The position numbers and the translations under genes are program-made. The notes beneath the pieces were generated by a model. The model ran no database searches. It saw nothing but the letters and a program-made list of their open reading frames with translations, and was not told the origin of the DNA. Shown one piece after another: positions 1,640 to 50,769 of a stretch of 64,000 bases of DNA. Location of the stretch: contig CBDBGH010000001.1 of assembly GCA_965205265.1 (NCBI GenBank), positions 32,001-96,000 of the forward strand, written 5' to 3'. The number at the start of each line of letters is the position of its first letter. Within the stretch, counting starts at the first letter, position 1. The stretch is from Alphaproteobacteria bacterium. GTDB lineage: Bacteria > Pseudomonadota > Alphaproteobacteria > Bin95.

Positions 1640-3028
1640 CCCCACTTCCAGTCCGAAGTGCAACACCGGCCATTTTCCCCGCCCGGGCGGGGAAAATGGC
1701 CGGAAGGCGGGATTCCCGGCCCCCTGGCGCCGGTGATTCCGGGCCCGGGACGGCTGGAGTCCCTTCGCGGGAGAGCCTATCGGCGCTTTCCGGGCAGCGC
1801 AAGGCCGCCGCCGGGGCGGGTCGCGTCCGTCCGGGCGCAGGGAGGGCGCAGCCCGACCGGAGCCCGGACGGACGCGACGTCGAAATCCTGTCCACCCCCT
1901 TCCGGCGCAGCCATCCGCGCCGTCTGGAGGCGGGCGGGCCGCGTCAGGGTGGGCGGGCCCGGCGGAACACCTCGGCGGGCGTCCGGTAGCCGAGCACCCT
2001 GCGCGGTCGCGCGTTCAGGCGGTCCTGCACCGCTTTCACCTCCGCGTCGGTGACCGCCCGCAGGTCCGTCCCCTTCGGCAGGTACTGCCGGACCAGCCCG
2101 TTGGTGTGCCCGGTCGGGCCCCGCTCCCAGGAGTGCTGGGGGGTCGGGAGGAAGAACCCGGCCTTCAGCGCCTCCGCCACGCCGGCGTGGCCCGCGAACT
2201 CCCTGCCGTTGTCCGCCGTGACCGTGTGGACGGCGACGGCGGACGGCGGCGGCATCGCCAGCATCGCGGCGGAGACCGCAGCCGAGGTGCGCCGGTCAAC
2301 CCTCTGGAGAAACGTGTATTTCGAGGCGCGGTCCACAAGGGAGACCACCGCCCCGCTGTGGCCTTTCCCGATGATCGTGTCCGCCTCCCGGTCGCCCACA
2401 CGCTCCCTGCTCTCCACCTCCGCAGGCCTCTCCGAGATGTCCACCCGGCCCGGGATGTGGCCCCGGCCGGAGTGCCGCCCGCCCCTCCAGTTGGGCTTTT
2501 TCCCGCGGCGGCGCAGCAGCGGGAACAGCCCGCCGCCCGCCTTCCTGTCGGCCTTCAGGTGCTCGTATATCCACTGCCGGCCCACCGCCCAGCCGCCCTC
2601 CAGCCGCAGCCGTCCCGCGATCCGCTCCGGGCTCCAGCCCTCCTCCAGAAACCCCTCGACACTCGCCCAGCGCTCCGCAGTCATCCTCCGGGGGACCCTG
2701 GACGCCGCGCTGCGGCGCTCCTCCGCTTTCCCCTGCGCCTCGCCGGGGCTGTAGCCCGAATCCCCGCCGTTCCGGCGCAGCTCCCGCCAGACCGACGGGC
2801 GGTCACGGCCCAGACGGGCCGCGATCACCCCGTCCGACAGCCCGCTTTCCTTCAGCGCGCCGATCTGGCATCTATCCTCATGGGTCAGGTGGCGCTGGCC
2901 CTCGGGCATGACAGTCTCCTATGCGTCGTTGCTGGGACTGTCGCCGCTTCCTGGCCGATCCGCAACATCATGCGGCAGGAAAACCGGTCACCACCGCCAC
3001 TGGTGTTGCACTTCGGACTGGAATGGGG
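1640..3028 (-). mobile_element. IS30-family insertion sequence
   Basis: 22-bp identical inverted repeat core TTCCAGTCCGAAGTGCAACACC at 1646-1667 and 3002-3023, enclosing an IS30 transposase. Confidence 0.9.
1944..2909 (-). pseudogene. IS30 transposase, ORF open but degenerate
   Basis: HLTHEDR..IAARLGR..VWRELRRN, GDREADTIIG, TVTADNGREF, HSWERGPTGHTNGLVRQYLPKG; the catalytic E of the NENTNG motif appears replaced by G. Confidence 0.8.
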
Positions 3029-3031
3029 CTA

Positions 3032-7862: not shown

Positions 7863-7880
7863 TATGATCAAAAGATACGG

Positions 7881-9462
7881 GTAACTGCTCGCCCCTTCAT
7901 CCCTGACCGTCCCGCCTGACGGCTTTCGGGCCGGGCATCCTGTCCCGTCATCCGCGCCCGTCCGCCGTCGGCCATCCCTGGGCCTGGCATAATGGAGCTG
8001 CCCGCTGCACTGTCCATCCGTCCGGGCGAATCACGGCGGAGGCGGCGATCATGGTGGTGGAGGCGGAGCGGTGCCGACGGTGAACGCAGCCTCGCTGCGC
8101 GCGCGGCTGGACGGTTGCCGGGCCCGGTTCGATGCGATCAGGCGGAAGGGCGGGGCGGGCGCGGACACCCCTGCGCCGGTCAAGGCCCTTTTCCTGCCGC
8201 CCGGCGTCCTGGTGGCCGTGCCGCTGGAGCGGACGACCCGCAGGACCGACGCCAGCTCCAGCATCCCCCCGTGGCGGACGGAGAGGGACGGGACCGCCCG
8301 GCGCACCGGAAGGGACGGCGGCCGGGGCGCGGAACCGAACCTGCGGACCGGCACGGACATGGGCGGGACCACCGTCGGGGAGACGGTCGCCGTCGATGCC
8401 TGCGGCGCCGACCTCCCGTGGGTCGCCCCCGCCGGACGCGGGCGGCGCGTCCCGTCCGGCATCGTCCCCGAGGCCGGCGGGCGCCGCGTGGAGGCCGGGG
8501 CCAGGGAATGCCCGGACCGCCGGGCCCGGACCAGGGGGCGGTTCCCCGACGGCATGCCGGGCCCGCTGCGGTACGGCACGGGCCTCCAGGCATTCACGAC
8601 CAGCCTGCCGGGCGCCCACATGCTGTCCCCGCCCCGGGCCGTGGGAGGAGGCCGCCGTCGCGCGGCTGCCGGAACGCCCGGCCCTGCACGCCGACGGGAC
8701 CGGATTCCGGGTCGACGGCAGGAGGCGGTGGCTCCATGTCCCCACCGACGGGTCCCTGACCCTGAAGCGCCCGCACCGCAGGCGCGGATGCGGGGCGATC
8801 GGGGACATCGGCGTCATCCCCCGCCACACCGGCACGCCGGTCCACGACTGCTGGGCGGGCCACCTCACCCACCACCGGTGTACGCACCGGCCCTGTGGCT
8901 CCCATATCCTCCGCGAACTGACGTCCGTCGTGGAATCCAACGGCTTCCGCCGGGCGCGCCTGATGAAAAGGCCGCCGCGCGGGGCCTGCCACGGGGCCAG
9001 CCGAAGCGACACCAAGGTCCCGCCCGAGGCCGGACGCCTGGCCGCGCGCAGGCGTTGCCGGACCATCCCTGCACAGGGCCGCAGGGAGCTGCCGGAGATC
9101 CCGCCGCGTCCGAAGGGAAAGCGCGGGAGGGTCGCGGGATCCGACGCGCACAGCCTCCACGGCCGCCTCGGGAGGCACGGGGGGTCCGTGCCGCGCTTCA
9201 TGGCCGACCCGGACGTCAGCTTCACCGACAACGCCGGCGGGCGGAAAATCCGCATGGCCAGGGTGAGGATCAAGGTGTCAGGCCGCTTCCGGACACAGCT
9301 CCATGCCGGGGCATGGTGCCGGATCTCCAGCTACCCCAGCCCGATGGCCGCCCTCGGTTACAACCCACCCGTCGCCATCCAGACCGCCCTGGCCGGAAAC
9401 GCAGCCGCCATGGCCAGACTGCACAATGCCCGGTCCGCACCCAGAAAGGGGTGAGCAGTTAC
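7881..9462 (+). mobile_element. IS66-family element (single-ORF type), degenerate and frameshifted
   Basis: IRs GTAACTGCTCGCCCCTT and AAGGGGTGAGCAGTTAC; 8-bp target duplication AGATACGG at 7873-7880 and 9463-9470; LHADGTGFRVDG..WLHV, VHDCW, FTDNAGGRKIRMARVRIKVSGRFR. Confidence 0.9.
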
Positions 9463-13880: not shown

Positions 13881-14706
13881 CCGCAATTCCGCTCTCCGGT
13901 TGCTGAAGGGATTGGCCTATCTGGCGATAGCCCTTTGGTCGGGTGCACCGATTGCACTCCTGGTGCTCTCGTCGCTCAAGCCGCCACGTGACATACTCTC
14001 TTTTCCGCCGACCATCATCTTTACGCCCACACTCGACAATTACCGAGCATTGATTTCCCGCTGGCCGGGATTCTTCGACGCAATGTGGAACAGCTTGATC
14101 ATTACGGTCGGCGCGACCGTCGTCACGGTCATCACGACGACGATGGCCGGCTACGTCTACGCCCGCGTGCGCACCCGGGCCACGGCCATCTCGTCGTTCT
14201 TCATGATCCTCATCCGCATGATCCCGCCGATCGTCATCTCGCTACCGCTCTTTCCGTTGGTCAACATTTTGAGGCTGTCTGACACGCACATCGTCCTCAT
14301 TATCCTCTACGCGACATTCTTCGTCTCACTGAACACGTGGATAATGAAAGCGTTCATCGACCAGATACCGTTGGAGTTGGAAGAGGCGGCGACAGCAGAC
14401 GGTGCAACGCTGCGCCAAGTCCTGCGCCACATCATCGTACCGCTCTCTGCTCAGGGCATGATCGCAGCCTCGACATTCGTTCTCATCTTCTCGTGGAACG
14501 AGTTCCTGTTCGCTTTCATTTTCACGACCACGAACGCCAAGACCGCTCCGATCGTAATCAGCGAGATGGTTGGTGCCATCGACGGCGTCGACTGGGGCAT
14601 TCTGTTCGCGGCGGCGACAGTTCAGCTCGTGCCGATCCTGGTCTTCGTGATAGCTGTGCAGAAATACGTAATCGCCGGCCTCACGGCCGGATCGCTGAAA
14701 GGTTGA
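13873..14706 (+). CDS. Carbohydrate ABC permease
   Basis: IPLELEEAATADGA, FSWNEFLFA, GLTAGSLKG. Confidence 0.92.
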   Translation: MRNRNSALRLLKGLAYLAIALWSGAPIALLVLSSLKPPRDILSFPPTIIFTPTLDNYRALISRWPGFFDAMWNSLIITVGATVVTVITTTMAGYVYARVRTRATAISSFFMILIRMIPPIVISLPLFPLVNILRLSDTHIVLIILYATFFVSLNTWIMKAFIDQIPLELEEAATADGATLRQVLRHIIVPLSAQGMIAASTFVLIFSWNEFLFAFIFTTTNAKTAPIVISEMVGAIDGVDWGILFAAATVQLVPILVFVIAVQKYVIAGLTAGSLKG

Positions 14707-14722
14707 ATAAGGGAGACACGCG

Positions 14723-15580
14723 TTGAATGATTTCCAGATGGCGCTTTTGCGAGCGGATCCGAAGTTATCACGATTCAGCCCGTTGCAACGGATCATATAT
14801 TTTGACGACTTCGACACCGGTTACAACGGGTGGACGGCCCTTATCGGTAATTATGAGGATGATATCGGCAATATGCACCCTGGGTATAGGCAGCTGACAT
14901 TGCCGATGCTCTCCAATCTATCGTTCTGGGACGCCGGTGCGCATGGCAGTTTTGACGGTAGCTATGCTCTCAAGATCGCAAGCCGGGCCAGGGCCGGTAC
15001 GCAAAACGTGGCGATCAAGCGCATCACCTTCATCAAACCCTGCCCGATCCAGATCGAGTTCTTCTTCACTTTTAAACCTGAGGCAAGCGCTGCGCAGTTG
15101 CTCGATACCGACCTGCGTTCGGTTGGGATTCTTCTGGACCTGCAAGATGACCGACATCGGGTCATGCCCCACCTGCGATACCTCAACGCCTATGAGGGAG
15201 AACGCGTCGAGCGCTGGCAGTTTAAGGAGAAGCGGGTTCCGGTGAAACGCTTCAGCGACAAAACCGTCACCCACTATCACCTAGCGGACCGGGACTGGAA
15301 GCATCTGGGATCCGAACGCCAGGTACTCTGCTACAACGAGATTCCGACCAAGGTGAACTGGCAGTATGCGCGGCTGAAGTTCGACCTGCGCACGATGCGC
15401 TATCTTGAGTTCCAATGTAACGACGTGAGCTACGATGTCGGCGATCTCGGTTCGCTAACTCTCCCCGCCATGCCGAACTTGCGAGGGATGTTCAACGTCG
15501 CCTTCTTTGTAGAGAGCGACGCGGACCGCCGCTCCAGCCTCTATGTGGATTCAGTTCTGGTTTCGGGAGATTGGGAATAA
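14723..15580 (+). CDS. Conserved hypothetical protein (probably DUF6772-like)
   Basis: 285-aa clean ORF, RBS GGGAG, inside the operon; family name from recall only. Confidence 0.7.
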   Translation: MNDFQMALLRADPKLSRFSPLQRIIYFDDFDTGYNGWTALIGNYEDDIGNMHPGYRQLTLPMLSNLSFWDAGAHGSFDGSYALKIASRARAGTQNVAIKRITFIKPCPIQIEFFFTFKPEASAAQLLDTDLRSVGILLDLQDDRHRVMPHLRYLNAYEGERVERWQFKEKRVPVKRFSDKTVTHYHLADRDWKHLGSERQVLCYNEIPTKVNWQYARLKFDLRTMRYLEFQCNDVSYDVGDLGSLTLPAMPNLRGMFNVAFFVESDADRRSSLYVDSVLVSGDWE

Positions 15581-23783: not shown

Positions 23784-25134
23784 GACCTCCCGGTGCAGCC
23801 GCCTGAACGCGGCCCCGTCGAGCTTCCCGCGCGCCTCGCAGGCCGTGGATGCCGCCGGGGGCCCGTCCTGCGGCAGGTCGACGCCCGCCGCCGCGCACTC
23901 CTCCCATAGCCCGCACAGCGTGGTGCGGTAGCCCTGGCCGCCAGGCGTGACGGTGAGGCGGAACACGAACGGCATGACGGGCAGGCTGCCGACACCCGCC
24001 TCCGCCATCGGGCGTCCCCGCGCTCCGCGACAGCCGTGGCGGCCGCGACGGGCTCCTCCCGGTGGCGGCCGAACCGGCGGTCCGAGGCGGCGGAGCGCCC
24101 CCTCTCCGCCCGCGTCGGCGATCCGTCATCCTCCCCGCGCAGGATCCCGCGGGCATTCCCGCGCAGCGGCATCAGGTGGACGCCCTTCACGGTCCTGCCT
24201 CCGGTCCCGCCGGTCTCCCCGATGTGCCTCCAGCCCGCGCCCCGATGGCACGAGGCCCTGAACCGGGTCCCGTCCACGAATGTCCCGCACATCACCGGAC
24301 GCCAGCCGTGGAGGCGCTCCCAGTCGTCCGCGAGCTGCCGCACCGCCAGGGCCAGCGCCGGGGACGCCAGGAACTTCGAGCGCACCCAGGGGAACACGGG
24401 GTAGCGCGGGTTCACCACCATCAGGTGGCGGTTGCGGTCCCGGCACGGAAGCGTCCTCCTCACCGCCTCGAAGAGCAGGCACCCCAGCCTGCGGCCGTCC
24501 CGGTCGGTGAGGAGGTAGCGGACGTGCGCCCCGAAGGGGCGCCTGTAACCCAGATGGTGGTGGCGGTCGACGGGCGCGTTCCAGAGCCGCCTGCCCTCCG
24601 TGTCCGTCACGGGCTCCAGGCCCAGCGGCCGGAGATCGCGGAGCCGCGCCGCGACCTCCGGCTGCGGGTCGGAGGCGGAGGTCCAGGCCGGCCTGCCGGC
24701 GGCCCTCATGTCGCGGACGCTCCCCTCCCGCCTCGCCGGCAGCCTGGGGATGCCGTGGCTCTCCAGGGTCCCGGCATGCCGAGGCAGGCCCCGACCCTGC
24801 AGGCACCCTTCGCCGTCGTCCAGCCAAGGTGCCCGCGGATGGTCCTCCCCAGCCCGTTGCGGCTGTCGTTGGGCAGCAGCGCCACGGTCTCCTGGATGTC
24901 GGCGGTCCGCCGCCGGGTCAGGCGGCGGCCGGAGAAGGTGGTCGATCTCAGGTCGGTGATTCGCCGGTCCATGGCCGGTTCCCGTATCTGCCCGACACCA
25001 GCATACGAACCAGCGTCCGCCTGTCAGTGGGTCTGGCGAAAAAAATCTGGAACACCGAAAACCACGCCATGTCAACGGCTTGCGACCGGCAGGGAAAACC
25101 GCTCAGGAACGTAAGGGCTATCCGAATGCCATTG
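23784..25134 (-). mobile_element. IS4-like DUF4338 element, copy 2, truncated
   Basis: Near-identical to 5189-6513 except for a 26-bp indel; IR at 25119-25134. Confidence 0.9.
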
Positions 25135-25518
25135 GCTGGGTGGCCGGGTCACCTCCGTCCCGGACGGCCTGCCGATCAAGGCGCGGTACTGGGGGTGCAG
25201 ACGCTGGCCCTGCCGGAGTCCGTGGCGCGGCGCAAGGCGCTGTCGATCGGGCATGTCGGCCGCGAGATCGCGCGCGACGGAAGGCTGCTGGCGGGGGGAT
25301 GGAACAGGCCGAGGCCGGACGGGGAGCCCGCGATGGAGCCGGGGAAGTACCTGCAGTTCATCTCGAACACATCCGACTTTATAGAAACTGCGGCGCGGCA
25401 GGTGGCGAAGGCCGGAAAGGGCGGCGAATGGTGGGGCGCGGACCATGCCGCCGCCCGTTTCGTGGCCAGCACCGCCGACGCGGCGGAGCACCTGGCCAAG
25501 GCCATGCTCGGGCTATGA
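25135..25518 (+). pseudogene. Nucleotidyltransferase-HEPN gene fragment (paralog A)
   Basis: VQTLALPESVARRKALSIGHVG...AAEHLAKAMLG; cut by the IS on the left and by vapC on the right. Confidence 0.8.
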
Positions 25519-26681: not shown

Positions 26682-27719
26682 ATGGCCAGCCCTGACAGAC
26701 AGCCGCCCGCCGCCGGGGCGGCGACCCTCGCCGGAATCCGCCGGGCGGCGGAGGAGACCCTCGCCGTCTGGCCCGAGGCCAAGGCGGCGGCGCTGTTCGG
26801 TTCCCGGGCGCGGGGCGACCACCTGCCGTCCAGCGACTGGGACGTCGCCTTCATCACCCGGACCGGCGACCGGGTGACCGCCATCCCGGACGGCTTTCCG
26901 ATCGAGACGCTGTTCTGGGACGTCCAGGCGCTGGCCCTGCCGGAGTCCGTGGCGCGGCGCAAGGCGCTGTCCATCGGGCACGTCGGGCGCGGGGTCGCGC
27001 GCGACGGAAAGCTGCTGGCGGGGGGATGGAACGGGCCGAGGCCGGACGGGGAGCCGGCGATGGAGCCGGAGAGGTACAGGAAATTCATCTTCATCGCGTC
27101 CGACCATATCGAGCATGCGGCGATGAAGGTGACGGAACCCGGAATGGGCGGCGACTGGTGGCTTGCGTTTGATGTCGCCGACCTTTTCGTGGCCCGCACC
27201 GCCGGCGCGGCGGAGCACCTGGCCAAGGCCATGCTCGGGCGGCGCGGGATCGACCCGCATCCGACGCATGGTGTCGACCAGCTCGCCGACCAGACGGCGC
27301 GGGAGGGGCATTCCGCTCTGGCGGAGGACATCCGCGGGATGGACGGCTTCACCAAGGAGGACCATGTGGCGGGCTACGAGGGGACAGCCTCCGCCCGCCT
27401 CCAAAACGCCATCCGTCGCCTGCCCACCGTCGTCCGGCGGCTCGCGCTGGAGCTTGCCTCGGCCGCCGAGGACCCGAAATTCGCCGATGTGGTCGCGCAG
27501 GTCGCCACGGTGGTGACCAGGAAGGCCGCCGCCCGGGACACCCTCCGGCTGGCCATCGTGCGGGACGCCTCGGATCCCTCCCCACCCCCGCAGCACCGGT
27601 GGTTGGCGCCGCTGGTCGTGGCGCGGGAGTCCTTCCTGCCAGAACTCCTGAAGCTCCAGGCCGACCTCCGGCCCCTTGTGGGTCAGGAACGGGACCGCGT
27701 CGCGTGGCGGTCCTCCTGA
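26682..27719 (+). CDS. Nucleotidyltransferase (MNT)-HEPN fusion protein (paralog B)
   Basis: LFGSRARGDHLPSSDWDV (Pol-beta NTase motif); AAEHLAKAML..THGVDQL (HEPN-like). Confidence 0.82.
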   Translation: MASPDRQPPAAGAATLAGIRRAAEETLAVWPEAKAAALFGSRARGDHLPSSDWDVAFITRTGDRVTAIPDGFPIETLFWDVQALALPESVARRKALSIGHVGRGVARDGKLLAGGWNGPRPDGEPAMEPERYRKFIFIASDHIEHAAMKVTEPGMGGDWWLAFDVADLFVARTAGAAEHLAKAMLGRRGIDPHPTHGVDQLADQTAREGHSALAEDIRGMDGFTKEDHVAGYEGTASARLQNAIRRLPTVVRRLALELASAAEDPKFADVVAQVATVVTRKAAARDTLRLAIVRDASDPSPPPQHRWLAPLVVARESFLPELLKLQADLRPLVGQERDRVAWRSS

Positions 27720-27866
27720 CCGTTCGGCTGATCCGTGAGCCACCGGGCGGGCGGGTGTCCACCGGACATCACTTCCATGGTGAAACCCAGCCGACCCGCA
27801 GCCTCCGGTTTCGGGGCAGGGCGGTGCCGGATGGGTCGGCGCCTCGGCGGCCACCGGTCCGCCCAT

Positions 27867-28628
27867 TTAGCAGCAGCGCCCGGCGGCGCCAGTCCGGGGC
27901 GGCGGGCGAACGGGGATAGTCGAGCCACCGCCGCCGCGAGAACATCGGGGCGAGCATGGCCCCGATGCGGAGGGGATGGGGGCGATCATGGTACCGCAGT
28001 CCCATCCCTCGGGCTCCGTGTAGCTCCACATCACGGCATCGATCCTCATCGACGGTCCGTAAGCGATGGGGATGTCCCGGGGGAGACGGCCGCACCCGCC
28101 CGGACCGCAGACGCCGAGCAGGAGATCCCCGCCGGGCGCGGTGGCCTCCGCCATGCCGAGCAGGACGCGGTCGACGTCGGCGAGGGTGTCCTGATGGATG
28201 TAGCCATACCAGAATCCGGTCACCAGCTCCGCAGGCCCGATCCCGGCGAGGTCGCGGGCGTCCCGCTCGATGAAGCTGGCCGCGAACCCTCCGCGGGCGC
28301 GGGCCATCTCCAGCATCCGCGCCGAGCGGTCGACACCGGTGCGCCGCGTCGCCCCGCCTGCCCGCCGCAGGTGGAACCCGGTTCCGCAGGCCACATCGAG
28401 CCACCGGCGGCCGCCTGTCCGCGACCGCAGCAGCGTCTCCACGGTCCCGACCTCGAATTCAGTGTGGGGGCGGTTGACAGGTCCGGTGAGGTACCGGCTG
28501 TCGTAGAGGCGGACGAAGTCCGGGTCGTCATAGGGCCGCGGGGGCGGCGGCCATTCACTTCCGGCGGCGGTTGCCGTCCCGGATCCCGCCACCCGGTCAC
28601 GCCAGCTCGGCGCCGGGGGCCCGGACAC
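27867..28628 (-). CDS. Class I SAM-dependent methyltransferase (start and C-terminus uncertain)
   Basis: WLDVACGTGFHL, GVDRSARMLEMAR, APGGDLLL. Confidence 0.75.
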   Translation of the reverse strand: MSGPPAPSWRDRVAGSGTATAAGSEWPPPPRPYDDPDFVRLYDSRYLTGPVNRPHTEFEVGTVETLLRSRTGGRRWLDVACGTGFHLRRAGGATRRTGVDRSARMLEMARARGGFAASFIERDARDLAGIGPAELVTGFWYGYIHQDTLADVDRVLLGMAEATAPGGDLLLGVCGPGGCGRLPRDIPIAYGPSMRIDAVMWSYTEPEGWDCGTMIAPIPSASGPCSPRCSRGGGGSTIPVRPPPRTGAAGRCC

Positions 28629-29903
28629 GGCTTCGGGCCGGCGGTTCGCCGCCGGTCAGTTCAGGCAGAGGCGGCGCCAGCCCGCCCCTCTCCATCAGGT
28701 ACGACCTGAACGAGGGGATCGGGCAGGAATGGAGCTCGTTCGTGTTGAACTGCAGGACCCCCCGGTGCACGAGATGTTCCAGGAACCATTCCTCGTCCCG
28801 GCCCTTCGGCAGACTCCAGCCATCCCCTTCCGGATCATCCAGAGGCCGGGCGAGGCTCCTGATCTGTCTCACGATGGTTGAGTCCTCGCTGCCTTTCTCC
28901 GGCAGCTGCCGCATCAGCTCCGCCACGAGGAACCTGGCGTCGCGGATCTCTTTCGAGCGCCGCCGGCTGTAGGAAGCGGTGCGGAACTCCCGCTCCCGCT
29001 GCCGGACCCGCGCCGCGTCGACGTCCGCGAGCCTCCCCCGCATTCCAGCAGCCCCTTCGCGAGCGCCCGCATGCCGTTGTGCAGGTGCTGCGGCCAGCCG
29101 TCGGAAAGACCCGCGATGAGCGTCGGCCAGCTGACCCGCGCGTCCCCGGCGGGGACGCGGAACTCGTCCAGCATCCTCTCGACCGCGTAGGCCGCCTCCC
29201 CGTCCCCGAGGGCGCCGACCTCGTGGACCGCCTCGGATTCCAGCCGGGTCAGGCCCGCCGCCTGGAGCCTGTCATGCGAGTCGCCGAGGCCCGCGTAGAC
29301 CGGCACGACGGGAAGGCCGTGCCGGGCCGTGTGCAGGGCCAGGAGCATGGGCCCGGCCTCCGGCCCGACGGTCTGGATCTCGTCCACCATGAGACAGACC
29401 GGGCGCGGCCATGTCCGTCCCGGCAGCGTCCGCCCGAGGGTGTCGAGGCCCGCGTCCTCCGGATGGACGGACCCCCCGGTGCGCCCGTCGGCACCGGTCC
29501 CGCCCAACCCGACGGCGCCGCCGACGCTCCAGGACCGCTGGGTGCGCCAGTCGCCGCTGGCGCCGGGCGAGCCGGCCTCCGCGATGAGGGAGGCGACGCG
29601 GGCCTGATCACCGAGATCCACCGGCTCCAGATGGACGGTGACCGGCCCCTCCCCGCCCCCGGCCTCCCAGAGCTTCGCGAGTTCCGAAAGTATCGCCGTC
29701 TTGCCGGCCCCCGGCGCGCCCCGCAGCAGCTGCGTGGCGCCCTTGGGGCCCTGACCATCCCCGGCCCTCTTCCCGGCCCTAGCGCAGACATCGGAAATGT
29801 GCCCGATCACGCCCGCGCGGCCGACGAAGAACCTTGCGTCTTCCCGGTCTCCGGTCCTGACGAACTCCGCCAGACCTTCCAGGTCCGGTCCGCTCGAGCC
29901 CAT
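28597..29903 (-). pseudogene. STAND-like/AAA_16 ATPase, frameshift near 29038
   Basis: FFVGR, GAPGAGKT, LMVDEIQ, SDGWPQHL; C-terminal HLVHRG..CPIPSFRSYL in the next frame; the shift lies in a G run. Confidence 0.8.
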
Positions 29904-30033
29904 GGAAAACGGTACCATCTGTCTGCCCTCCCGAAGCGCCCGTGCCGGCCGGTCATCCATAGCGGAAAATCCGCCGGGGAGCAACCGCGGGGCGCCGCGG
30001 CGGCCGAACCTCAGATGACGGTCAGGGGCGGTG

Positions 30034-30977
30034 CCGTTCGGTTCCCGGGCGCGGGGCGACCACCTGCCGTCCAGCGACTGGGACGTCGCCTTCATCACCC
30101 GGACGGGCGACCGGGTGACCGCCATCCCGGACGGCTTTCCGATCGAGACGCTGTTCTGGGACGTGCAGGCGCTGGCCCTGCCGGAGTCCGTGGCGCGGCG
30201 CAAGGCGCTGTCCATCGGGCACGTCGGACGCGAGATCGCGCGCGACGGAAGGCTGCTGGCGGGGGGATGGAACAGGCCGAGGCCGGACGGGGAGCCCGCG
30301 ATGGAGCCGGGGAAGTACCTGCAGTTCATCTCGAACACATCTGCCTTTATACGGGATGCGGAGCCGGAGGTGGCGGCAGCCGGAATTGAAGACGACTGGT
30401 GGGATGCGACCTATGCCGCCTACCGTTTCGTGGCCCGCAGAGCCGCGGCGGCGGAGCACCTTGCCAAGGCCATGTTCGGGCGGCGCGGGATCGACCCGCA
30501 TCCGACGCCCGGCGTCGACCAGTTCGCCGACCGGGCGGCGCGGGAGGGGCACTTCGCCCTGGCGGAGGCTGTCCGCGAGATGGACGGCTTCACCAAGGAG
30601 GACCATGTGGCGGGCTACGAGGGGGCGAACGCCGACCGCCTCCGCCACGCAGCCGCGCGCCTGCCCACCGTCGTCCGGCGGCTAGCGCAGGAGCTCGCCT
30701 CGGCCGCCGGGGACCCAAAATTCGCCGAGGTGGCCCGCTGGCCGCCAGGGTCGTGGCCAATTCCGCCCGCGCCGCCGGGGACACCCTCCGGCTGGCCATC
30801 GTGCGGGACGGCGCGGATCCCACCCCGCCTCCGCCGCCGTACCAGTGGCTGGCCCCTTCGGTCAGGGCGCGGGAAACCTTCCTGTCGGAGCTCCTGAAGC
30901 TCCAGGCCGACCTCCGGACCCTTGTGGGTCAGGAACGGGACCGCGGCGCGTGGCGGTCGCCCTCGCCGTTCGGCTGA
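30034..30977 (+). pseudogene. MNT-HEPN fusion (paralog C), 5' truncated, frameshift near 30735
   Basis: Begins at FGSRARGD; near-identical blocks to 26682-27719; ends DRGAWRSPSPFG*. Confidence 0.8.
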
Positions 30978-43239: not shown

Positions 43240-43317
43240 GGTCGGCGAATTCGAGTGTTGTGAATCATATGAATCATTCGACTCATGTATATCATTCACA
43301 TGATTCAGATCTTTTGC
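43240..43317. promoter_or_regulatory. 9-bp-periodic operator-like array, copy B (inverted homolog of 39430-39525)
   Basis: GGTCGGCGAA...ATTCGACTCATGTATATCATTCACATGATTCAGATCTTT aligns with the reverse complement of copy A. Confidence 0.75.
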
Positions 43318-43442
43318 ATTCCGGGCCAGAAAGCCACAGGTTATCAGACCCGCCGCGCGGCGCCCCGAGTGGGGATTGCCCGAAGATACAGCAGATGCTA
43401 GGATTTAGGCCGAATCCACAGTCCGATAGGAGGGAAGAGGTT

Positions 43443-43727
43443 ATGGCCTCTCCAGCAGTGCCGCCTGCCCGCGCCCTCGCGGCCGAGGAAAGCTACCGGA
43501 AGTCGTTCCGCGACGCGGTGATGCCCCACCTCGGGACGACCCCCGAGAAGGCGGCCTACATCGAGGCGGCGCTCGACATCCTCTGGGAGTATGACGAGCT
43601 GTCCCCCTATGAGATGGCCGTCAACGCCTGGAACAGCGGCAACCGGGAGCTCTACGAAAGTGCGCTCGCCGACGACCACCGGCTCACCGAACTCGCGGCT
43701 GCGATCAAATCCGGGGAAGAGGGGTGA
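43443..43727 (+). CDS. Small acidic hypothetical protein (possible antitoxin/partner)
   Basis: 94 aa, RBS GAGG, GTGA overlap with the next gene. Confidence 0.65.
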   Translation: MASPAVPPARALAAEESYRKSFRDAVMPHLGTTPEKAAYIEAALDILWEYDELSPYEMAVNAWNSGNRELYESALADDHRLTELAAAIKSGEEG

Positions 43728-44623
43728 CCTCTCCCGCCGCCGCGCAGGTCGCCGCCGACACCAATCTGGTCCGCCATTCGACGCCCAGACGCTATCTCAC
43801 CGTAATGGAGGACCTGCGGGGCCGACGCATCGCCATCCTCCCCACGGTCGCCCACGAGCTGCGGGGGCATATCCCGCTGCAGGCTGCGGCATACGTCAGG
43901 GGAATCTGCGAACGGGACGAGAGGTGGAGCGGCGGCCAGATCCAGACCGCGGCCCGCGCCGTGGGCGGCGCGGCGGTGGAATGGTGGGAGGACTGGCGGC
44001 TCCGCAACGACTCGGTCTACGAGCATGTTCCGGATCTGGGAGCTTCGCATTAAACCCTGACGGCCACCTCCCTTCCCGACGACGCCTTCCGGGACACTAA
44101 CGGGAACGACCAGTTGATCTATGCCCAGGCATGGGCGCATGGTATCGACATTCTGGCGGGCCGGAACCGCCGGAGCATTGTCAGGAAGGAGCTGGAACGT
44201 CATTTCGCGGCGCTCGACGCCCCACGCCCGCCAATCGAGGTCAGGAACCTCTACGAGCATACCACTGCCGTTGCCGAGACCGAACGGCGGGATGTCCCGG
44301 AGGTCGCGCTGGAGGCGATGCTGTGTGCCGTCATCCCCGAGGACTGGACATCCGGGAAGCACGTCGGCGTCCGCTCCTCGTGCGAAAGGTTCATCAGGAA
44401 CCTGAACACTGGCCCCGGCCGACGCGTCAGAATGACAGCAGGTGAGAACACGCTCTCCCGAATACTGGACAGGGCGCTTCATCGCCTCGGTCATACAGCT
44501 TTCGTCGAGCGCTGTGAGGCGGCATACGCCATACGCCCGGCGGCGGCACGGGAAGCCGAGAGGCAGTTTCACAGCAGGACCCGCGCCGCAGTGCGGTTGA
44601 CCGGCATCGATCCCTGGGCTTGA
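43724..44623 (+). pseudogene. Divergent PIN-like protein with an in-frame TAA at 44051-44053
   Basis: VAADTNLV, ILPTVAHEL, NDQLIYAQAWAHGIDILAGRN resemble the PIN acidic motifs; the two ORFs are in frame. Confidence 0.6.
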
Positions 44624-45071
44624 TCCACGCTGCATCGCGTCAAGGGTCGAAGTTGCCGAATCACGGACCGGTCCGCGGTGAATCAACGTGATCATCTGGA
44701 TCAAGGCGCGCCGAAACCGCCTGTTTCGGGCAGCGCTGAATGACCTGGGTTCCGCCCCGGTTGAATTCCCCTCCGTCGGGATCCGTTTCCGGGTCAACGT
44801 CGGCTGCCTACTCGCGACGCAGCCTGTCCCAGTCCGCCTGTCCCTCTCCTGACTGGCGGACCGCCTACTCAAGGGTGACTGTCGTGACGGCGTTTTTTCC
44901 TTCTCTTCCCGCCGGTTGGCCGCGATGATCAGGATGGCGTAACTGCGGAACATGTAGACCGCCGGGATGACGGTTCCACCGTCCAGACCCCCGTCGCGGT
45001 CCAGCGGACCGGAGCCCATCCGACCATCGGCACTGGACATCCCGGATTCCGGCCGGGTTTCACTGCCGCCG

Positions 45072-45659
45072 TCAGGCCGCGCCGACAGGGATCCCGTCCG
45101 ACGACAGCCCGAGGGCTTCCAGACGCTTTTCGACCGCGAGCGGGCTGCGCTCCAGAGCCACGGCGATCTGGGAAATCCCCTTCCCCGCTCCGTGAAGCCG
45201 TCTCACCCTGTCCTCCTCGTCCTGTGTCCATGCCGCGCCCTGGCGGGCCGGACGACCGGTCCTTCCACCGGAACGCGCGGCGGCGGATCCTCCGCCTTCC
45301 CGACGGACTTCCGCAGTCCTGCCCGGGACAGGCCTAGGCGGGACGTCCGCCCAGGTATGGACCGGCCCGCTGAACCTCTCGGTCTCCCGCCGCTCCATCT
45401 AGTCCGACAGCGCCGCCAGGGCGGAGGGCAGCGCGGTGGCGAGGAACCTCCCCCCTTCCAGCGTGAATGTCGCCATCGTCCCGCGTCCGTCCTCCACCGC
45501 CACGTAGTGCAGGACCACGTCGCCGCCGACATCGGCGGCGCGGAACATGTACCGGTCATCGCCGCTGCTGGACTCTGCGTCCCAAACGAAATCCGGCCTC
45601 GCGCCGCCGCCCTGTCCGTCCATGGCAACCATCATGCTTCGGTCGGTGCAGTGTGCCAC
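45072..45659 (-). pseudogene. Hypothetical protein with C-terminal HTH, split by an in-frame TAG at 45399-45401 (or two abutting genes)
   Basis: AWTQDEEDRVRRLHGAGKGISQIAVALERSPLAVEKRL. Confidence 0.5.
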
Positions 45660-45889
45660 CGGAGCGTCCAGCGCTCAAGCGCGGCGGCGCAGGGGTCTGG
45701 TCCTTTGCTTAAGCCCCATTACATGTGCTTGGTCCGGGTTTCTCGAGGCGGACAGCGGTTCCCACTAGCCCGGATATCTCACCAGACCGGGAGTCCGTGC
45801 ATCCGGCGAGGGAAAGTCCGGACAAAAAATCGTAGACAACGACTGGAATGCGTTTCTGTAGATGTCCAGAATGGAAACTCCCCCATTTA

Positions 45890-46360
45890 CGGGTCTGAGC
45901 AGCAATGGCGCAGAGAACCTACATAAGGATTTCAGGGCTCGTCAGGGTCTGCGTTCTGCGGGTCGCGCAGTGGCCTGAGTTCGCCCCGTTCCACGAATTC
46001 CGGCAGTGGGAAGGCGTATCGGCCGGGCATGTTGACGTGTCTGAAACCTGACGGCGACAGACGCGCGACGTCTTCGGGCCTGGAGTCGCAGCCCTCCGCC
46101 ACGAGTTGGTCGGGGGCGGCATCCATTTAGATCGTGTTCCGGAGCACGACGGGATTGACGACCGGGCCGAGTGCTCCGAGTTGATCCTCCTGACGTTCAC
46201 GGTAGCGTTGGCGCAACTCGCCACGCCATTCCGTGGAAAAGGGCACGAGCGGGTTGATGTCGTCCTTCAACCCGGTTGGGTTGAGCGGGGATGCGCCGCC
46301 GGCAGGCTTCGTCATCGATGAAACGGAGAAGATGGAGTGTCTTTACGAGGCGGCCGACGC
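45890..46360 (-). mobile_element. Tn3-family remnant: terminal IR plus transposase C-terminus
   Basis: GGGTCTGAGCAGCAATGGCGCAGAGAACCTACATAAG IR-like end; KTLHLLRFIDD..GELRQRYRE.QEDQLGAL..EDVARLSP..HVNMPGRY. Confidence 0.82.
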
Positions 46361-46473
46361 CGGGCACGGGCAATGCGGTCGATGGCAGCGCGGACACGCG
46401 CCAGCGCGTAGTTGCGGCGGTGGGCTGGCCGAAATCGGTGGTTTCGGTCCCCGGTGCCACCGACGCAGGGCAA

Positions 46474-46587
46474 TGCCGACCGATTCATTCGTTTCGGGTC
46501 TTCCTCATTGAAGAAGGCGATCATCCGGGTATGGAATCGGGCAGACGGAACGATGATGGCGACGATGGTACGGATTTCAGGTTCTGA
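46474..46587 (+). pseudogene. C-terminal remnant of another STAND-like ATPase paralog
   Basis: PIHSFRVFLIEEG..GRRNDDGDDGTDFRF* matches the ends of the two downstream genes. Confidence 0.75.
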
Positions 46588-46711
46588 AATCCATGCCAAT
46601 ACCCTGTTGGTTCAGGTTTCATTTTTCGGCTGGTTTTCCTATGGTAAGGACACGGAATTATTTCCGGTGTCGATGGCATCGCGAATATGTCAATATATGA
46701 AAGAACTGTCC

Positions 46712-47986
46712 ATGCCCATCAATCGCGCCCATATCAAGGAATACCTGCGGCAGGGCGAAGGTGCGCCACCGCCGGTCTTTATCGGTCATGATGATATCCT
46801 GAATGATATCCTGGTCACAGCAAAAGACAGTGCCGGTCAGTCAAAAAAGACCCACGTTGTGCAGGGGGCACCTGGAGCCGGGAAGACCTCCCTGCTGCAC
46901 GAGATGCAGAAGCGATGGACGGGGGAGGACGGATTTCCAAGAGTGGTGGCCCTGCATTCCACCCAGCTTCTGTACAATTCCCTCAATGGTGTCGGGGCTG
47001 TACTTGAAGCCTGGACCATGGATGAAGGAAAATGGAAGCGGACATTGACCGATCGGATCAAAAGACTGAGCGGAATTGGGATTGGACCTGGCGGTCTGTC
47101 GATGGAATTCTCCGATGTCCAGATTCCAGAGACATTATATATGGTGGCCAACAGATATCCTGTAAAGGAACAGGCCAGACCGATCATTGTCGCCGTGGAC
47201 GAGGCGCAGCGCCTGTCCAGGGGGCAGACGGCACCGGAAGCCCTGTTCCTGCAGGAGATCCATGACGGCGGTTCCGGCCTGCCCTTGATCCTGGTGCTCG
47301 CTGGCCTGTCCGATACAGATGCCAGGGCCAGGGAGATGCATCTGACACGTGGACGGACAGTCCATGAAGTCAGACCCCTCACGCAGGCCCAGGCCCGGGA
47401 TTTCATGCGCAGGCTGGCCCTTTGGTTCGGCCTCGACACCTCCCGCCACAATTCCCGTCTGGAGGCCCTAGCCGACATCTGCGATGGCTGGCCGCGGCAC
47501 CTGCGCTTCGCTGGCGTCTCCCTGGCGGAAGAGGCCCTGCGCATTGACGGTGACATGCATCGCATGGACTGGCCTGCGATGGCGGCGAGGACATGGCAGG
47601 AGCGTCAGGCCTATTACAGTTCCCAGAGAACTTCGCGGATGCGCCATGCCAAAGCGCTCCTGGCGGCGGTGATGCAGGACATTCCAACACAGGCGAATGG
47701 ACCCAGATCACTTGAGGACACGGAAGTCCTGGCCTCAATCGTCCGGCATAGACGTATTGGCGATACGCCCGACAATATCCCCTGGTCATTGCCGAAAGGG
47801 ATGGATGCGGAGGATTTTCTTGAGGATCTCGTCCATCAAGGTGCTCTGTACATTGATGGCGAAGGATATGTCCATTCCCCCATTCCCTCATTCAAGGCTT
47901 TCCTCATCGACCAGGGCCGTCAGCCGGATACGGAACCGACCAGGCGGAACGATGGGGGAGATGATGGCACGGATTTCAGGGCCTGA
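46712..47986 (+). CDS. STAND-like/AAA_16 ATPase
   Basis: GAPGAGKT, VAVDEAQ, CDGWPRHL, LVHQGALY..SPIPSF. Confidence 0.85.
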   Translation: MPINRAHIKEYLRQGEGAPPPVFIGHDDILNDILVTAKDSAGQSKKTHVVQGAPGAGKTSLLHEMQKRWTGEDGFPRVVALHSTQLLYNSLNGVGAVLEAWTMDEGKWKRTLTDRIKRLSGIGIGPGGLSMEFSDVQIPETLYMVANRYPVKEQARPIIVAVDEAQRLSRGQTAPEALFLQEIHDGGSGLPLILVLAGLSDTDARAREMHLTRGRTVHEVRPLTQAQARDFMRRLALWFGLDTSRHNSRLEALADICDGWPRHLRFAGVSLAEEALRIDGDMHRMDWPAMAARTWQERQAYYSSQRTSRMRHAKALLAAVMQDIPTQANGPRSLEDTEVLASIVRHRRIGDTPDNIPWSLPKGMDAEDFLEDLVHQGALYIDGEGYVHSPIPSFKAFLIDQGRQPDTEPTRRNDGGDDGTDFRA

Positions 47987-48030
47987 AATCCGTATTGACG
48001 CCATTATGTCAATGTATGAAAGGACTGTCC

Positions 48031-49277
48031 ATGCCCATCAACCGCGCCCGTATCAGGGAATACCTGCGCCAGGGCGAGGGTGCGCCGCCGCCGGTCTTTG
48101 TCGGTCATGACGATATCCTGAAGGATATCCTGACCACAGCGAAGGACAGCGCCAGCCAGCCGAAGATGACCCGCGTCGTGCAGGGCGCCCCCGGCGCCGG
48201 CAAGAGCTCGATGCTGCACGAGATGCAGAAACGATGGACGGGGAAAGATGGAACCCACGGTTGGTCGAGGTGTCTTCGGAAGCCGTCATCCAAAATGTAT
48301 CCGGCGTCATCCGGGCGATCATGGCCGCCGGCCTTTCATCTGAGGACAGCTGGTGGAATATCCTTCAGGAGCGTTTCCGTAGGATACGCGCCGTCGGCGC
48401 TTCCGTCGCGGGATATGGCCTGTCCGCTGAATTCGATGTCTACGCCGATGTGAAAATGCTTGGTATGGCCATGGAACGGAGCCGGAGGGAGGCTTGGAAC
48501 CACGTTGTCATCCTCGCCGTGGATGAAGCCCAGGCGCTCAGCGGCGATCATGAATCCACATCCGCATGTTTCCTGCGCGAGATCCACAATGGCAGGACTG
48601 GCCTTCCCATAGGTCTGGTTTTCGCCGACCTGTCCGATACAGATGCCAGGGCCAGGCAGATGCATCTGGCACGTGGACGGAAAATCCATGAGGTCAGACC
48701 ACTCACGCAGGTCCAGGCCCGGGACTTCATGCGACGGCTGGCCCTGTGGTTCGGTCTCGACACCTCCCGCCACAATTCCCGTCTGGAGGCCCTGGCCGAC
48801 ATCTGCGATGGCTGGCCGCGACACCTGCGCGTTGACGGCGTCTCCCTGACGGAGGAATCCCTGCGCGTTGACGGCGACATGCATCGCATGGGCTGGCCAG
48901 CCATGCGGAGGATGGCATGGGTGCTGCGCCAGAAATACTATGACGAACAGTCCAGCACCATGATGCAGGATGCGGATATCCTGACCGCCAGGGTGATGTG
49001 CGGACTGCGCGATGGCATGCGGTTCAGGGATCTGCAGGGACTGGTGGAGAACAATGTTGTGGACTGTCCCGGGCAGCGATTGCCGGCGGGAGTGGATTCC
49101 GCAATGTTCCTCAACGATCTCATCCATCAGGGCGCGTTGTACAGAAACCCGCAGGGCCGCGTCCATTCCCCCATCCCCTCGTTCCGGGCCTTCCTCATCG
49201 AACAGGGCCGCCAGCCGGATATGGAACCGGCCAGGCGGAACGATGGGGGAGATGATGGCACGGACTTCAGGGCCTGA
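48031..49277 (+). pseudogene. STAND-like ATPase tandem paralog, frameshift near 48255
   Basis: GAPGAGKS in one frame, LAVDEAQ and GWPRHL in the next; the shift lies in a C run. Confidence 0.82.
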
Positions 49278-49308
49278 AACCGGTTGCGGTTGGACCGCCC
49301 GGAAATCG

Positions 49309-50577
49309 TCAGTCCCGACCAGAATTCTCAGTCACGTCATTTTCCAGACCATCCCCGCTGTTTCTGCCGATCAGGAAAGCCTTGAAGGAGGGGATTGGCG
49401 AATGGATATATCCATCGCCATCCTCGTACAGGGCTCCCTGGTGGATGAGGTGGTCGAGGAACCATTCCGCATCCCTGTTCCGGGGCAATGTCCATTCGAT
49501 GGCCTCACCGTCCCTATGCTGGTTGTGGATACGGTTCATGTGATTGAGTATGTCCACATCCGTAACGGTGGTTTCATCGGATCTGACGGGGACGCCGTGG
49601 AGGATTTCCGCGAGCAGGAACCGTGAACGTCGCATGGTCCGGCTGGTCTGTTTTCGGTAATATTCCCGCCGCAGGGTCCATGTCCGTTCCTGCATGGCTG
49701 GCCAGTCCATGTGGTGCATATCCCCTTTCGCACGTTCGGTTTCCCTGGCCAGCACCTCACCGGCCTGACGCAGGTGCCGGGGCCAGCCGTCGCAGAGACC
49801 GGCCAGTGCCTCGAGATGCGCGTTGTGGCGGGATGTGTCGAGGCCGAAGAAGATCGGCAGCCGTCGCATGAAGTCCCGGGCCTGGAATTCCGTCAGGGGT
49901 CTGGCCTCATGAAGTCTGGCGCCGCGTGTCAGATGCATTTCGCTGGCTCTGGCGGCGGTGTCGGACAGGCCGGCGAGTACCGGAACCAGTGGCAGGCCCG
50001 ATGTGCTGTCATGGATTTCCTGCAGGAGCAGCGCTTCGGGCGATGTTTTCCCCCGATCCATACGCTGGGATTCGTCCACGGCGACGATGACCGGACATCC
50101 CTCTTTCGCTGGAGGGTATCTGGCGGCCAGTTCGCGGCATGTTCCGGGAACCTCGCTGTCGGCGAATTCAACCGACAGCCCGCCCGGACCGGCACCGACC
50201 CCCCGCAACCGCTTGAGTCGATCCTTCAGGGTATCGGTCCATTTCGCCTCCGCCATGGTCCAGGCATCAAGGACGGCGCCAACGCCCGTTCGGGGATCTT
50301 TCATCAGATCGGTCGAGGACAGGGCCACGACCCTGGGTTTTCCGTCCTTACCCAGCCATCGTTTCTGCATTTCGGCGAGCAGCGAGCTCTTGCCGGCCCC
50401 GGGGGCGCCCTGGATGATGCGGGTGAATTTCGCCTCTCCGGCGCTTTCCTGTGCCGTCCGCAGGATGTCATCGAGGATATCCTGATGGCCGACGAAGACC
50501 GGTGGCGGGGCACCCTCACCCTGGCGCAGATATTCGCGGACCCTGTCCGCGTGATAGCGTGGTGGCCTTGAGGACAT
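49309..50577 (-). CDS. STAND-like/AAA_16 ATPase, convergent paralog
   Basis: EYLRQGEGAPPPVFVGH, GAPGAGKS, VAVDESQ, CDGWPRHL. Confidence 0.85.
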   Translation of the reverse strand: MSSRPPRYHADRVREYLRQGEGAPPPVFVGHQDILDDILRTAQESAGEAKFTRIIQGAPGAGKSSLLAEMQKRWLGKDGKPRVVALSSTDLMKDPRTGVGAVLDAWTMAEAKWTDTLKDRLKRLRGVGAGPGGLSVEFADSEVPGTCRELAARYPPAKEGCPVIVAVDESQRMDRGKTSPEALLLQEIHDSTSGLPLVPVLAGLSDTAARASEMHLTRGARLHEARPLTEFQARDFMRRLPIFFGLDTSRHNAHLEALAGLCDGWPRHLRQAGEVLARETERAKGDMHHMDWPAMQERTWTLRREYYRKQTSRTMRRSRFLLAEILHGVPVRSDETTVTDVDILNHMNRIHNQHRDGEAIEWTLPRNRDAEWFLDHLIHQGALYEDGDGYIHSPIPSFKAFLIGRNSGDGLENDVTENSGRD

Positions 50578-50731
50578 GACCTGTTCCCTCTGTTTCAGGT
50601 CGAAATCGGTCCGCATCAGTCTATCATACAATGATGATGAGGTCCAGAATGGCATCATTGTTGACCTGTCTTTCATGAAGGGTGACGTCACAGGTGGCCC
50701 GCAGGGATTCAGCCCAGACATGAGATGTTCC

Positions 50732-50769
50732 GTGACTGTTCCCCGCCCTGAAGGACGGGGAACAGTCAC
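50732..50769. repeat. 14-bp-stem hairpin (REP-like or terminator)
   Basis: GTGACTGTTCCCCG-ccctgaagga-CGGGGAACAGTCAC. Confidence 0.6.

Follow-up and report, generated by a model that had tools for sequence, protein, structure and literature searches.

Positions 45890 to 46357 of the 64,000-nucleotide stretch of DNA analyzed here (G000:C1:32001-96000, part of replicon C1 of an alphaproteobacterial genome; hereafter, the window) hold, on the minus strand, the end fragment of a Tn3-family transposon whose transposase gene, tnpA, has decayed with an unusual spectrum of changes. At sites that are invariant or nearly so in 81 relatives, 14 to 15 thymines of the coding strand, about 26% of the conserved T, have turned to C, whereas the reverse-strand equivalent, A>G, occurs only once. 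This T>C signature, which is A>G when read on the plus strand of the window, is real, dense, old, and strand-specific. Three other dead transposases of the same replicon have also decayed from A:T to G:C, on both strands, and the four elements pooled display 53 A:T>G:C vs. 4 G:C>A:T changes at formerly constrained sites.

The initial annotation, made from the letters alone, had singled out six peptides in this region, assigned them to a Tn3 remnant, and explained their Pro and Arg residues as former Leu and Trp altered by coding-strand T>C. All six are found in minus-strand open reading frames (ORFs): RRIPAQPNR and HQPAR in ORF 46197..46460, LGPVVN and VLRNT in ORF 46127..46315, and AAPDQ and NMPGRY in ORF 45932..46126. 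The assignment to Tn3 is borne out by homology to PF01526 and by alignment of the terminal inverted repeat (IR). The proposed derivation stands as well. In all 10 of the closest aligned proteins, Leu, Trp, or Tyr occupies the positions where the remnant has Pro, Arg, His, or Cys, and because these proteins keep L, W, or Y at the cited sites, the objection that the closest homologs might already carry the Pro and Arg residues falls. Transitions counted by direction against relatives, the check that the annotation had suggested, make T>C the dominant change in the remnant, with an excess far above that in the relatives.

In a first estimate, seven plasmid relatives served as outgroups, the row of Rhizobium WSM1274 (RhizWSM) being excluded on account of its nonhomologous IR end. 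All seven agree at 279 sites, where the remnant differs 37 times (T>C 15, A>G 8, C>T 0, G>A 4, transversions 10); the same treatment gives 4 to 27 changes in each of the relatives, among which T>C and A>G do not outnumber C>T and G>A. For a larger set, 80 metagenome loci were fetched, 78 of which match the remnant by blastn, and the 73 loci with a high-scoring segment pair of at least 381 nt were combined with 8 plasmid rows into the 81 relatives. The changes in the remnant, by conservation of the alignment column, are as follows.

Columns 100% conserved: 153 sites, 15 changes (T>C 10, A>G 1, C>T 0, G>A 0, transversions 4)
Columns at least 95% conserved: 235 sites, 23 changes (T>C 14, A>G 1, C>T 1, G>A 1, transversions 6)
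Columns at least 90% conserved: 260 sites, 25 changes (T>C 15, A>G 1, C>T 1, G>A 2, transversions 6)

The columns that are at least 95% conserved comprise 54 T, 49 A, 60 C, and 72 G, so that T>C has hit 14 of the 54 T; the other hits fall on 1 of the 49 A, 2 of the 60 C, and 4 of the 72 G. The difference between T>C (14/54) and A>G (1/49), a strand bias of 14 vs. 1, is significant (Fisher, P = 5e-4). The 81 relatives summed over the same columns have 195 changes (T>C 18, A>G 10, C>T 58, G>A 50), and the share of T>C is far larger in the remnant (14/23 vs. 18/195; Fisher, P = 4e-8). The A>G changes of the seven-outgroup estimate sit at columns that are variable in the wider family; therefore, decay at formerly constrained sites consists of coding-strand T>C. 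One of the 15 T>C changes, at 46243, matches the closest proteins and may be older than the inactivation of the gene. The terminal branch leading to the remnant is long (0.27, vs. 0.02-0.07 for the nearest relatives), and its GC content has reached 0.626, compared with 0.56-0.58 in six alphaproteobacterial outgroup relatives, with nearly the whole composition shift accounted for by the fall of coding-strand T from ~0.215 to 0.177 and the rise of C from ~0.31 to 0.353. A mild context preference was detected, CTC being hit in 7 of 14 cases vs. 8 of 45 for other contexts (P = 0.03). In a relaxed seven-relative set, in which at least six of the seven agree, 18 T>C and 12 A>G changes intermingle, their order along the fragment forming 15 runs vs. 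~15.4 expected (counted by hand).

The fragment is almost certainly a nonfunctional end of a Tn3-family transposon from a clade carried by plasmids of Hyphomicrobiales. Homology to Tn3 tnpA and IR spans 46357 to 45891, with matches, always over this span, in 515 of the 72,556 plasmid records searched by blastn and 72-78% nucleotide identity to annotated Tn3-family transposase genes and their IRs. The best plasmid matches are two plasmids of Aminobacter sp. SR38 (78.1%), a Mesorhizobium plasmid (77.9%), and a plasmid of Roseateles sp. XES5 (76.7%), where an annotated Tn3-family transposase is followed by the IR. The read-through translation, with the stop taken as X, matched 2183 proteins at E <= 1e-10 among 5.8 billion; PF01526, the DDE_Tnp_Tn3 catalytic region, is present in 120 of 120 among the matches listed, the closest of which are P0002 (85%) and P0003 (84%; 1001 aa, intact), the next ones, including P0004-P0006, lying at 83-80%. 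The remnant, comprising the last ~141 tnpA codons and the 38-bp terminal repeat, is laid out as follows.

45890..45927, minus strand: 38-bp terminal inverted repeat, outer tip at 45890/45891, aligned with the IRs of 8 plasmid relatives
45932..45934, minus strand: native tnpA stop TGA, at the end of ORF 45932..46126, aligning with the stops of the relatives
45935..46126, minus strand: last 64 tnpA codons, with AAPDQ and NMPGRY vs. AALDQ/AALNQ and NMLGRY in the relatives
46127..46129, minus strand: in-frame TAA produced by C>A at 46127, TAC or TAT in the 8 DNA relatives
46130..46227, minus strand: ~33 tnpA codons in the frame of the C-terminal part, with LGPVVN, NPVV, and VLRNT vs. LGLVVN, NLVV, and VLWNT
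46228, minus strand: +1 frameshift, one base extra compared with all 8 plasmid relatives, placed to ~1 base
46229..46357, minus strand: ~43 upstream tnpA codons in the other frame, homology stopping at ~46354-46357, the 5' truncation

In the upstream segment, TLHLL, DDEAC, RRIPAQPNR, and HQPAR replace the TLYLL, DDEAY/DDESY, RRILVQLNR, and HQLAR of the relatives, and the switch between ORFs 46197..46460 and 46127..46315 agrees with the frameshift. At the site of the in-frame TAA, 9 of the 10 aligned proteins have Tyr and one, P0011, has Thr (IYTDAA). The IR is degraded by six changes in all (T>C at 45915, T>C at 45910, T>G at 45909, G>A at 45906, A>G at 45900, and the tip base 45890). Tn3-family IRs are typified by a GGGG tip and a TAAG inner end; here, the inner end CTTA is retained and the tip has three of the four expected bases. 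With its 5' truncation, frameshift, and stop codon, the remnant falls short of a full-length TnpA (~1000 aa, with an N-terminal DUF4158), and no resolvase gene, res site, or second IR adjoins it; on one side it is flanked by the tail of an ATPase paralogue and on the other by DNA without matches. Promoter-like minus-strand sites at 46818-46791 and 46712-46684 face the remnant but are consensus matches only and were not used as evidence.

Compared with the Tn3 elements of the Roseateles sp. XES5 plasmid unnamed3 (WP_024899727.1) and of Aminobacter sp. SR38, Ciceribacter, and Agrobacterium plasmids, the remnant has 76-78% nucleotide identity over the last ~470 nt and shares the C-terminal TnpA motifs and the 38-bp IR, but retains only the last ~141 codons and the IR, carries a frameshift and a stop, and lacks an adjoining resolvase gene or res site. 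In itself, such a remnant is ordinary. No closer relative was found: self-comparison detected no second copy elsewhere in the genome, searches of the genomes of 61 relatives (the own genome included) and of 401 genomes of the class, with two candidates scored per genome, yielded nothing closer, the best of the 80 metagenome loci has 76.8% nucleotide identity, and a contig scan with the mutated peptides as patterns returned only two distant loci (55% and 46% amino acid identity).

The same states recur in independent data. Contigs from runs X1, X2, X4, and X6, which belong to four studies, cover the remnant with 0-3 differences per piece and share the T>C states; because contigs from four other studies carry them, these states are not assembly errors. 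The sister copies have one more T>C at an invariant T (45978), and one run has C>T at 46247 and still reads G at 46270, the site of a G>T private to the window. Contigs of X1, X2, and X4 join 46110 to 46168, skipping 57 nt (46111-46167), while the full form is present in other contigs of the same runs; the skip is either a deletion polymorphism or a second copy.

The pattern extends to other dead transposases on the replicon, with a difference. The initial annotation had described the remnant as another instance of a T>C signature perceived in a pile of insertion sequences (ISs) elsewhere in the window. The signature holds for the Tn3 remnant, whereas in the IS pile A>G is equally common; an amino acid view catches only L>P and W>R. 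No DNA homologs were found for window positions 7950-9500, and only short pieces of 67-77% identity for 3950-7800. Because DNA homologs were absent or short, the base change was inferred at the protein level, between the codons for the conserved residue and the codon in the window, at conserved protein columns; the homologs came from the 300 other genomes among the 301 of the class searched, the own genome included. Two ORFs were treated in this way.

1944..2909, minus strand: dead IS30-like transposase ORF, GDWE changed to GDRE and NEN to TGH, with HTH_38 as the only Pfam domain
8132..9454, plus strand: dead IS66-like transposase ORF, DETG changed to DGTG and FTNNxAE to FTDNAGG, with DDE_Tnp_IS66 at E = 3e-11

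Against 19 homologs, at 65 protein columns at least 75% conserved, the IS30-like ORF has 15 deviations (T>C 3, A>G 5, G:C>A:T 0, transversions 5, ambiguous 2), conserved residues of its catalytic motifs being among those lost; against 6 homologs, at 68 columns, the IS66-like ORF has 13 (T>C 6, A>G 6, C>G 1). A:T>G:C thus stands to G:C>A:T as 8 vs. 0 and 12 vs. 0, respectively, on both strands in either case, in two elements that were chosen as long ORFs, a choice favoring sequences without new stops. A second Tn3-family pseudogene, unrelated to the lineage of the remnant, lies to the left of the window (the part analyzed is C1:29539-30639). At 438 sites invariant in six relatives it has 28 changes (T>C 9, A>G 8, C>T 4, G>A 4), that is, 17 A:T>G:C vs. 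8 G:C>A:T over all these sites, and among the 20 nonsynonymous ones (T>C 9, A>G 8, C>T 1) the ratio is 17 vs. 1; its six relatives summed give 11 vs. 43 (P = 9e-5).

We tentatively favor the explanation that the signature results from long neutral decay under a strong GC-ward regime, combined with a local strand asymmetry. The dead end of tnpA would have persisted over a long period as neutral DNA within a plasmid lineage of high GC content, where a GC-ward substitution regime, arising by mutation and/or by biased fixation such as GC-biased gene conversion, would have turned formerly constrained A:T pairs into G:C with the reverse almost absent, as it would have done in the three other dead transposases. 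In the Tn3 remnant the outcome may have become one-sided through a local strand asymmetry set by transcription-coupled repair or by a fixed polarity of replication or repair, and no separate mechanism is invoked for its strand bias. We infer both points, the causal role of a GC-ward regime and the origin of the asymmetry, from the pattern of changes. This explanation ranks first because the direction fits the composition of the backbone (plasmid backbone genes have a GC content at third codon positions of 0.84-0.92), the changes are interleaved, their accumulation is gradual, and a search for two deaminase-fold Pfam families revealed no candidate enzyme on C1 or C2. The GC content of the IS66-like ORF, 0.68, 0.75, and 0.83 at the three codon positions (0.746 at the second), is high at all of them, as expected for old dead DNA drifting GC-ward. 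Raised A>G together with T>C and low G:C>A:T, the spectrum predicted by such a regime, is seen in the IS30-like, IS66-like, and second Tn3 elements, but not in the remnant.

Several observations weigh against GC-ward decay. It predicts A>G at about the rate of T>C, whereas the remnant has A>G at 1 of 49-51 sites vs. T>C at 14-15 of 54-60; its A>G is no commoner at conserved columns than C>T and G>A, and its asymmetry differs from the 9 vs. 8 of the second Tn3 copy (P = 0.017). Hershberg and Petrov (2010; PMC2936535) report bacterial mutation as AT-biased, so that a ratio of 53 to 4 calls for very strong biased fixation or an unusual spectrum. Both mutS and mutL are present as open frames. Recent singletons in the chromosomal IS families (T>C 3, A>G 4, C>T 9, G>A 8; family 2, with its mixed subfamilies, is omitted, and some families overlap, with possible double counting) reveal no GC-ward mutation bias.

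A sibling piece of the same Tn3 lineage poses a further difficulty. Located at C1:188508-189565 (L015:1509-2566), ~110 kb from the remnant, it consists of the 3' part of a resolvase gene and the first 232 codons of tnpA, with 78% amino acid and 76% nucleotide identity to the same relatives; an IS66-like remnant at C1:189577-190468 follows it. At 604 sites invariant in seven relatives the N-terminal piece has 41 changes (T>C 4, A>G 5, C>T 7, G>A 8, transversions 17). Its terminal branch (0.23) is similar to that of the remnant, yet it has 9 A:T>G:C vs. 15 G:C>A:T, and its GC content has gone down to 0.606 vs. 0.62-0.635 in six of the seven relatives (0.673 in the outgroup RW1). Per A:T site, A:T>G:C amounts to 23/127 in the remnant vs. 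9/229 in the N-terminal piece (P = 2e-5). The initial annotation had proposed that the effect follows element type; the three further dead transposases with A:T>G:C decay support this proposal, but because an N-terminal piece of the same Tn3 lineage lacks the bias, element type is insufficient.

Two ATPase genes near the remnant also weigh against GC-ward decay. C1 encodes five AAA_22-like ATPase paralogues, at window positions 46412-50769 (a cluster of three, in which copy 1 is intact, copy 2 frameshifted, and the third inverted, plus the truncated tail of a copy 0), C1:97748-98977, and C1:136419-137687; copies 0, 1, and 2 end in a common acidic tail (…RRNDGGDDGTDFRA).

46470..46590, plus strand: C-terminal tail of ATPase copy 0, abutting the truncated remnant, identified by alignment and a weak self-match (L002)

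Only one homolog was found among the 300 other class genomes searched, and the same codon inference was applied with the five paralogues and this homolog as reference. The intact paralogues have A:T>G:C vs. G:C>A:T ratios of 2:3, 3:10, 2:7, and 1:11. The broken copy 2, only 1.6-3 kb from the remnant, has 3 vs. 6, although it is the one broken nonmobile control and its break may be recent, so that element type is confounded with age or residence history. The family as a whole, at 11 vs. 37, differs from the dead transposases (P = 6e-14), as does the broken copy alone (P = 2e-4). The tail of copy 0 appears, by eye and without counting, to differ from copies 1 and 2 mainly by G:C>A:T. GC-ward decay thus leaves the unraised A>G, the spared sibling piece, and the spared neighbor unexplained. 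Other comparisons gave no readable direction, namely, the unpolarized pairwise comparison of paralogous segments, the diverged chromosomal IS subfamilies, and a three-way DNA parsimony of the ATPase copies (60-68% identity). The flank on the IR side (42300-45890) has no DNA match in plasmids and only partial matches, of 64-68%, in 17 genomes of the genus.

The unraised A>G, the spared sibling piece, and the spared neighbor would be accounted for by targeted editing, in which a function of the host or the plasmid attacks transposable-element DNA, deaminating adenine or changing A:T to G:C in some other way, and acting on one strand in the remnant (A>G on the plus strand, for example, while single-stranded) and on both strands in the other three elements. 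We consider this unlikely, despite a number of observations in its favor. A single transition type makes up 14 of the 23 changes in the remnant, with the strand bias and the CTC preference given above; four of the five dead transposase pieces are nearly pure A:T>G:C, in contrast to the ATPases, including the broken copy; and the sparing of the N-terminal piece and the flank is what would be expected if copies were hit or missed singly. However, no deaminase-fold gene of PF00383 or PF14437, the two Pfam families searched, is present on C1 or C2 (the three hits to each are all chromosomal), the T>C and A>G changes are interleaved without strand-coordinated clusters in the hand count, and three of the four elements are strand-symmetric. 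The changes are also old, being common to the four studies, and the few later ones are of several types (T>C 1, C>T 1, G>T 1). Finally, the contrast with nonmobile DNA relies on a single control that may be young, and the ORF-based choice of the IS30-like and IS66-like elements favored sequences without new stops. A shade less probable again is the specific form of this idea, an A:T>G:C converter specific to transposase-bearing DNA that would be an adenine-directed bacterial analog of RIP (repeat-induced point mutation) or APOBEC and would permanently disable transposons without stop codons, leaving behind GC-rich frames that are long and open but dead, the remnant having captured its action on one strand only.

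We regard a mutator or error-prone polymerase in the past as doubtful to about the same extent as editing in general. Under this explanation, the changes would date from a long stay in a mismatch-repair-deficient or other mutator host or from repeated error-prone copying that favors T:dGTP mispairs, for instance, end-primed synthesis on the transferred strand in replicative transposition. Dominance of transitions, the great excess of A:T>G:C over G:C>A:T, and strand bias would all fit; moreover, the strand with T>C has its 3' end at the IR and, judging from the established Tn3 mechanism, would be the template of target-primed synthesis in the Shapiro intermediate. Mismatch-repair-deficient Escherichia coli lines, said to have been studied by Lee et al. 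in 2012, reportedly accumulate mostly A:T>G:C with a strand bias of ~2 to 1. The bias of 14 vs. 1 is far above that figure, however, and the near absence of G:C>A:T is unlike such mutator spectra. The present host has intact mutS and mutL genes, no T>C excess is visible in the Tn3 end remnants of other hosts (Aminobacter MSH1, Mesorhizobium, Agrobacterium), and hundreds of mobilization cycles would presumably be needed to alter a quarter of the T.

The remaining two explanations are extremely improbable. That Pro and Arg are the original residues of a functional, GC-rich sublineage of Tn3, with no signature arising after inactivation, might be suggested by some A>G changes and the T>C at 46243, which lie at variable columns or match the closest proteins, as in DDEA and ARALFHG, which P0005 and P0006 also have; for the cited residues it is excluded by the protein and 81-relative comparisons, given that all 10 closest aligned proteins keep L, W, or Y and 10 T>C changes lie at columns invariant in 81 of 81 relatives, and the frameshift, stop, truncation, and degraded IR are also present. 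A sequencing or assembly artifact, for which no supporting evidence was found, is excluded by the contigs of four runs from four studies, and the assembly contains dozens of IS copies with 100% identity.

Replicon C1 (193 kb) has a GC content of 0.657, compared with 0.682 for the 5.46-Mb chromosome, C3; because it encodes a MobA/MobL-AAA_30 relaxase, ParA, and DnaB in the domain scan, we read it as a plasmid. The window is a mosaic of blocks with a GC content of 0.70-0.77 (2-9, 23-31, and 33-39 kb) vs. blocks of 0.56-0.64, and its cumulative GC skew has a minimum at ~61-62 kb, beside parA, DnaA_N-like, and dnaB genes, which may mark a replication origin. A cytosine C-5 DNA methylase gene at 40762-42057 on the minus strand is in two pieces, an N-terminal one (41665-42057, 130 aa, with FxGxG and PCQ motifs) and a C-terminal one (40762-41649, 295 aa); since the motifs are well kept, the split is probably recent. 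A DruA-like (PF14236) segment is present in two copies, 98% identical with mostly indel differences, at 5189-6527 and 23784-25148, the former joined to a DDE_Tnp_1 transposase domain in one long ORF. In the rest of the genome, positions 1-14907 and 28300-43206 of C2 are 100% identical, a 14.9-kb repeat at both ends, and C2 is likely a circular contig assembled beyond its own start; the first 21 kb of C3 (1-21130) recur at C3:4632568-4653697 with 99.995% identity. The chromosome has undergone a massive recent IS expansion (for example, C3:126629-128547, 27100-30105, and 429113-431906), in which a 1.6-1.9-kb element has reached ~57 copies, a 2.8-kb element 34, and several IS families 8-14 each, most copies being 99.9-100% identical.

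Among the closest parallels in GC-rich bacteria are the amelioration of acquired DNA and GC-biased gene conversion, reportedly treated by Lawrence and Ochman in 1997 and by Lassalle et al. in 2015. As in the present case, the change is toward the higher GC content of the host, affects dead genes (here, four), and is gradual and interleaved; unlike amelioration, the changes here are nearly pure transitions, confined to one strand in the Tn3 remnant, and a sibling fragment and a neighboring broken gene lack the signature. Editing hypermutation of mobile DNA is exemplified by fungal RIP, which causes C>T in repeats, by APOBEC3, which causes G>A in retroelements, and by ADAR, which causes A>G or U>C. 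These systems resemble the pattern in the high density of one transition type, strand bias, and mobile-element targets, but here the change is A:T>G:C in bacterial DNA, without strand-coordinated clusters, symmetric in three of the four elements, and with no candidate enzyme from PF00383 or PF14437 on C1 or C2. Diversity-generating retroelements practice adenine-directed mutagenesis, and share with the remnant the changes at adenines of one strand; unlike in those systems, where A changes to any base, the plus strand of the remnant has 14-15 A>G, 1 A>C, and 0 A>T, and neither a reverse transcriptase domain, among the 91 ORFs of at least 150 aa scanned, nor a template/variable repeat pair was found. 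The AT-biased rule reported by Hershberg and Petrov (2010; PMC2936535) is followed by the relatives of the remnant, by the ATPase paralogues, and by the recent IS mutations, and is reversed in the remnant and the three other dead transposases. Among the titles listed by full-text literature searches, there was no report of A:T>G:C-only decay or hypermutation of bacterial transposon remnants, strand-specific in one case here. As a class, A:T>G:C-only decay of transposase pseudogenes is pseudogene decay or amelioration with an unusual spectrum.

A:T>G:C changes never create stop codons and, therefore, may explain the great length of the open frames in the IS pile, which abound in Pro, Arg, Gly, and Ala; annotators are thus warned that these apparent ORFs, for which the decay pattern accounts, are dead genes. 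Dead genes of bacteria are expected to drift toward A+T, whereas four dead transposases of one plasmid drift in the opposite direction, one of them on a single strand, and neighboring nontransposase paralogues behave normally. If biased fixation is responsible, these remnants would provide an unusually clean readout of how the composition of GC-rich genomes is maintained in unconstrained DNA, a long-standing question; if editing is responsible, they would represent a new kind of genome defense against transposons and a natural DNA A-to-G converter.

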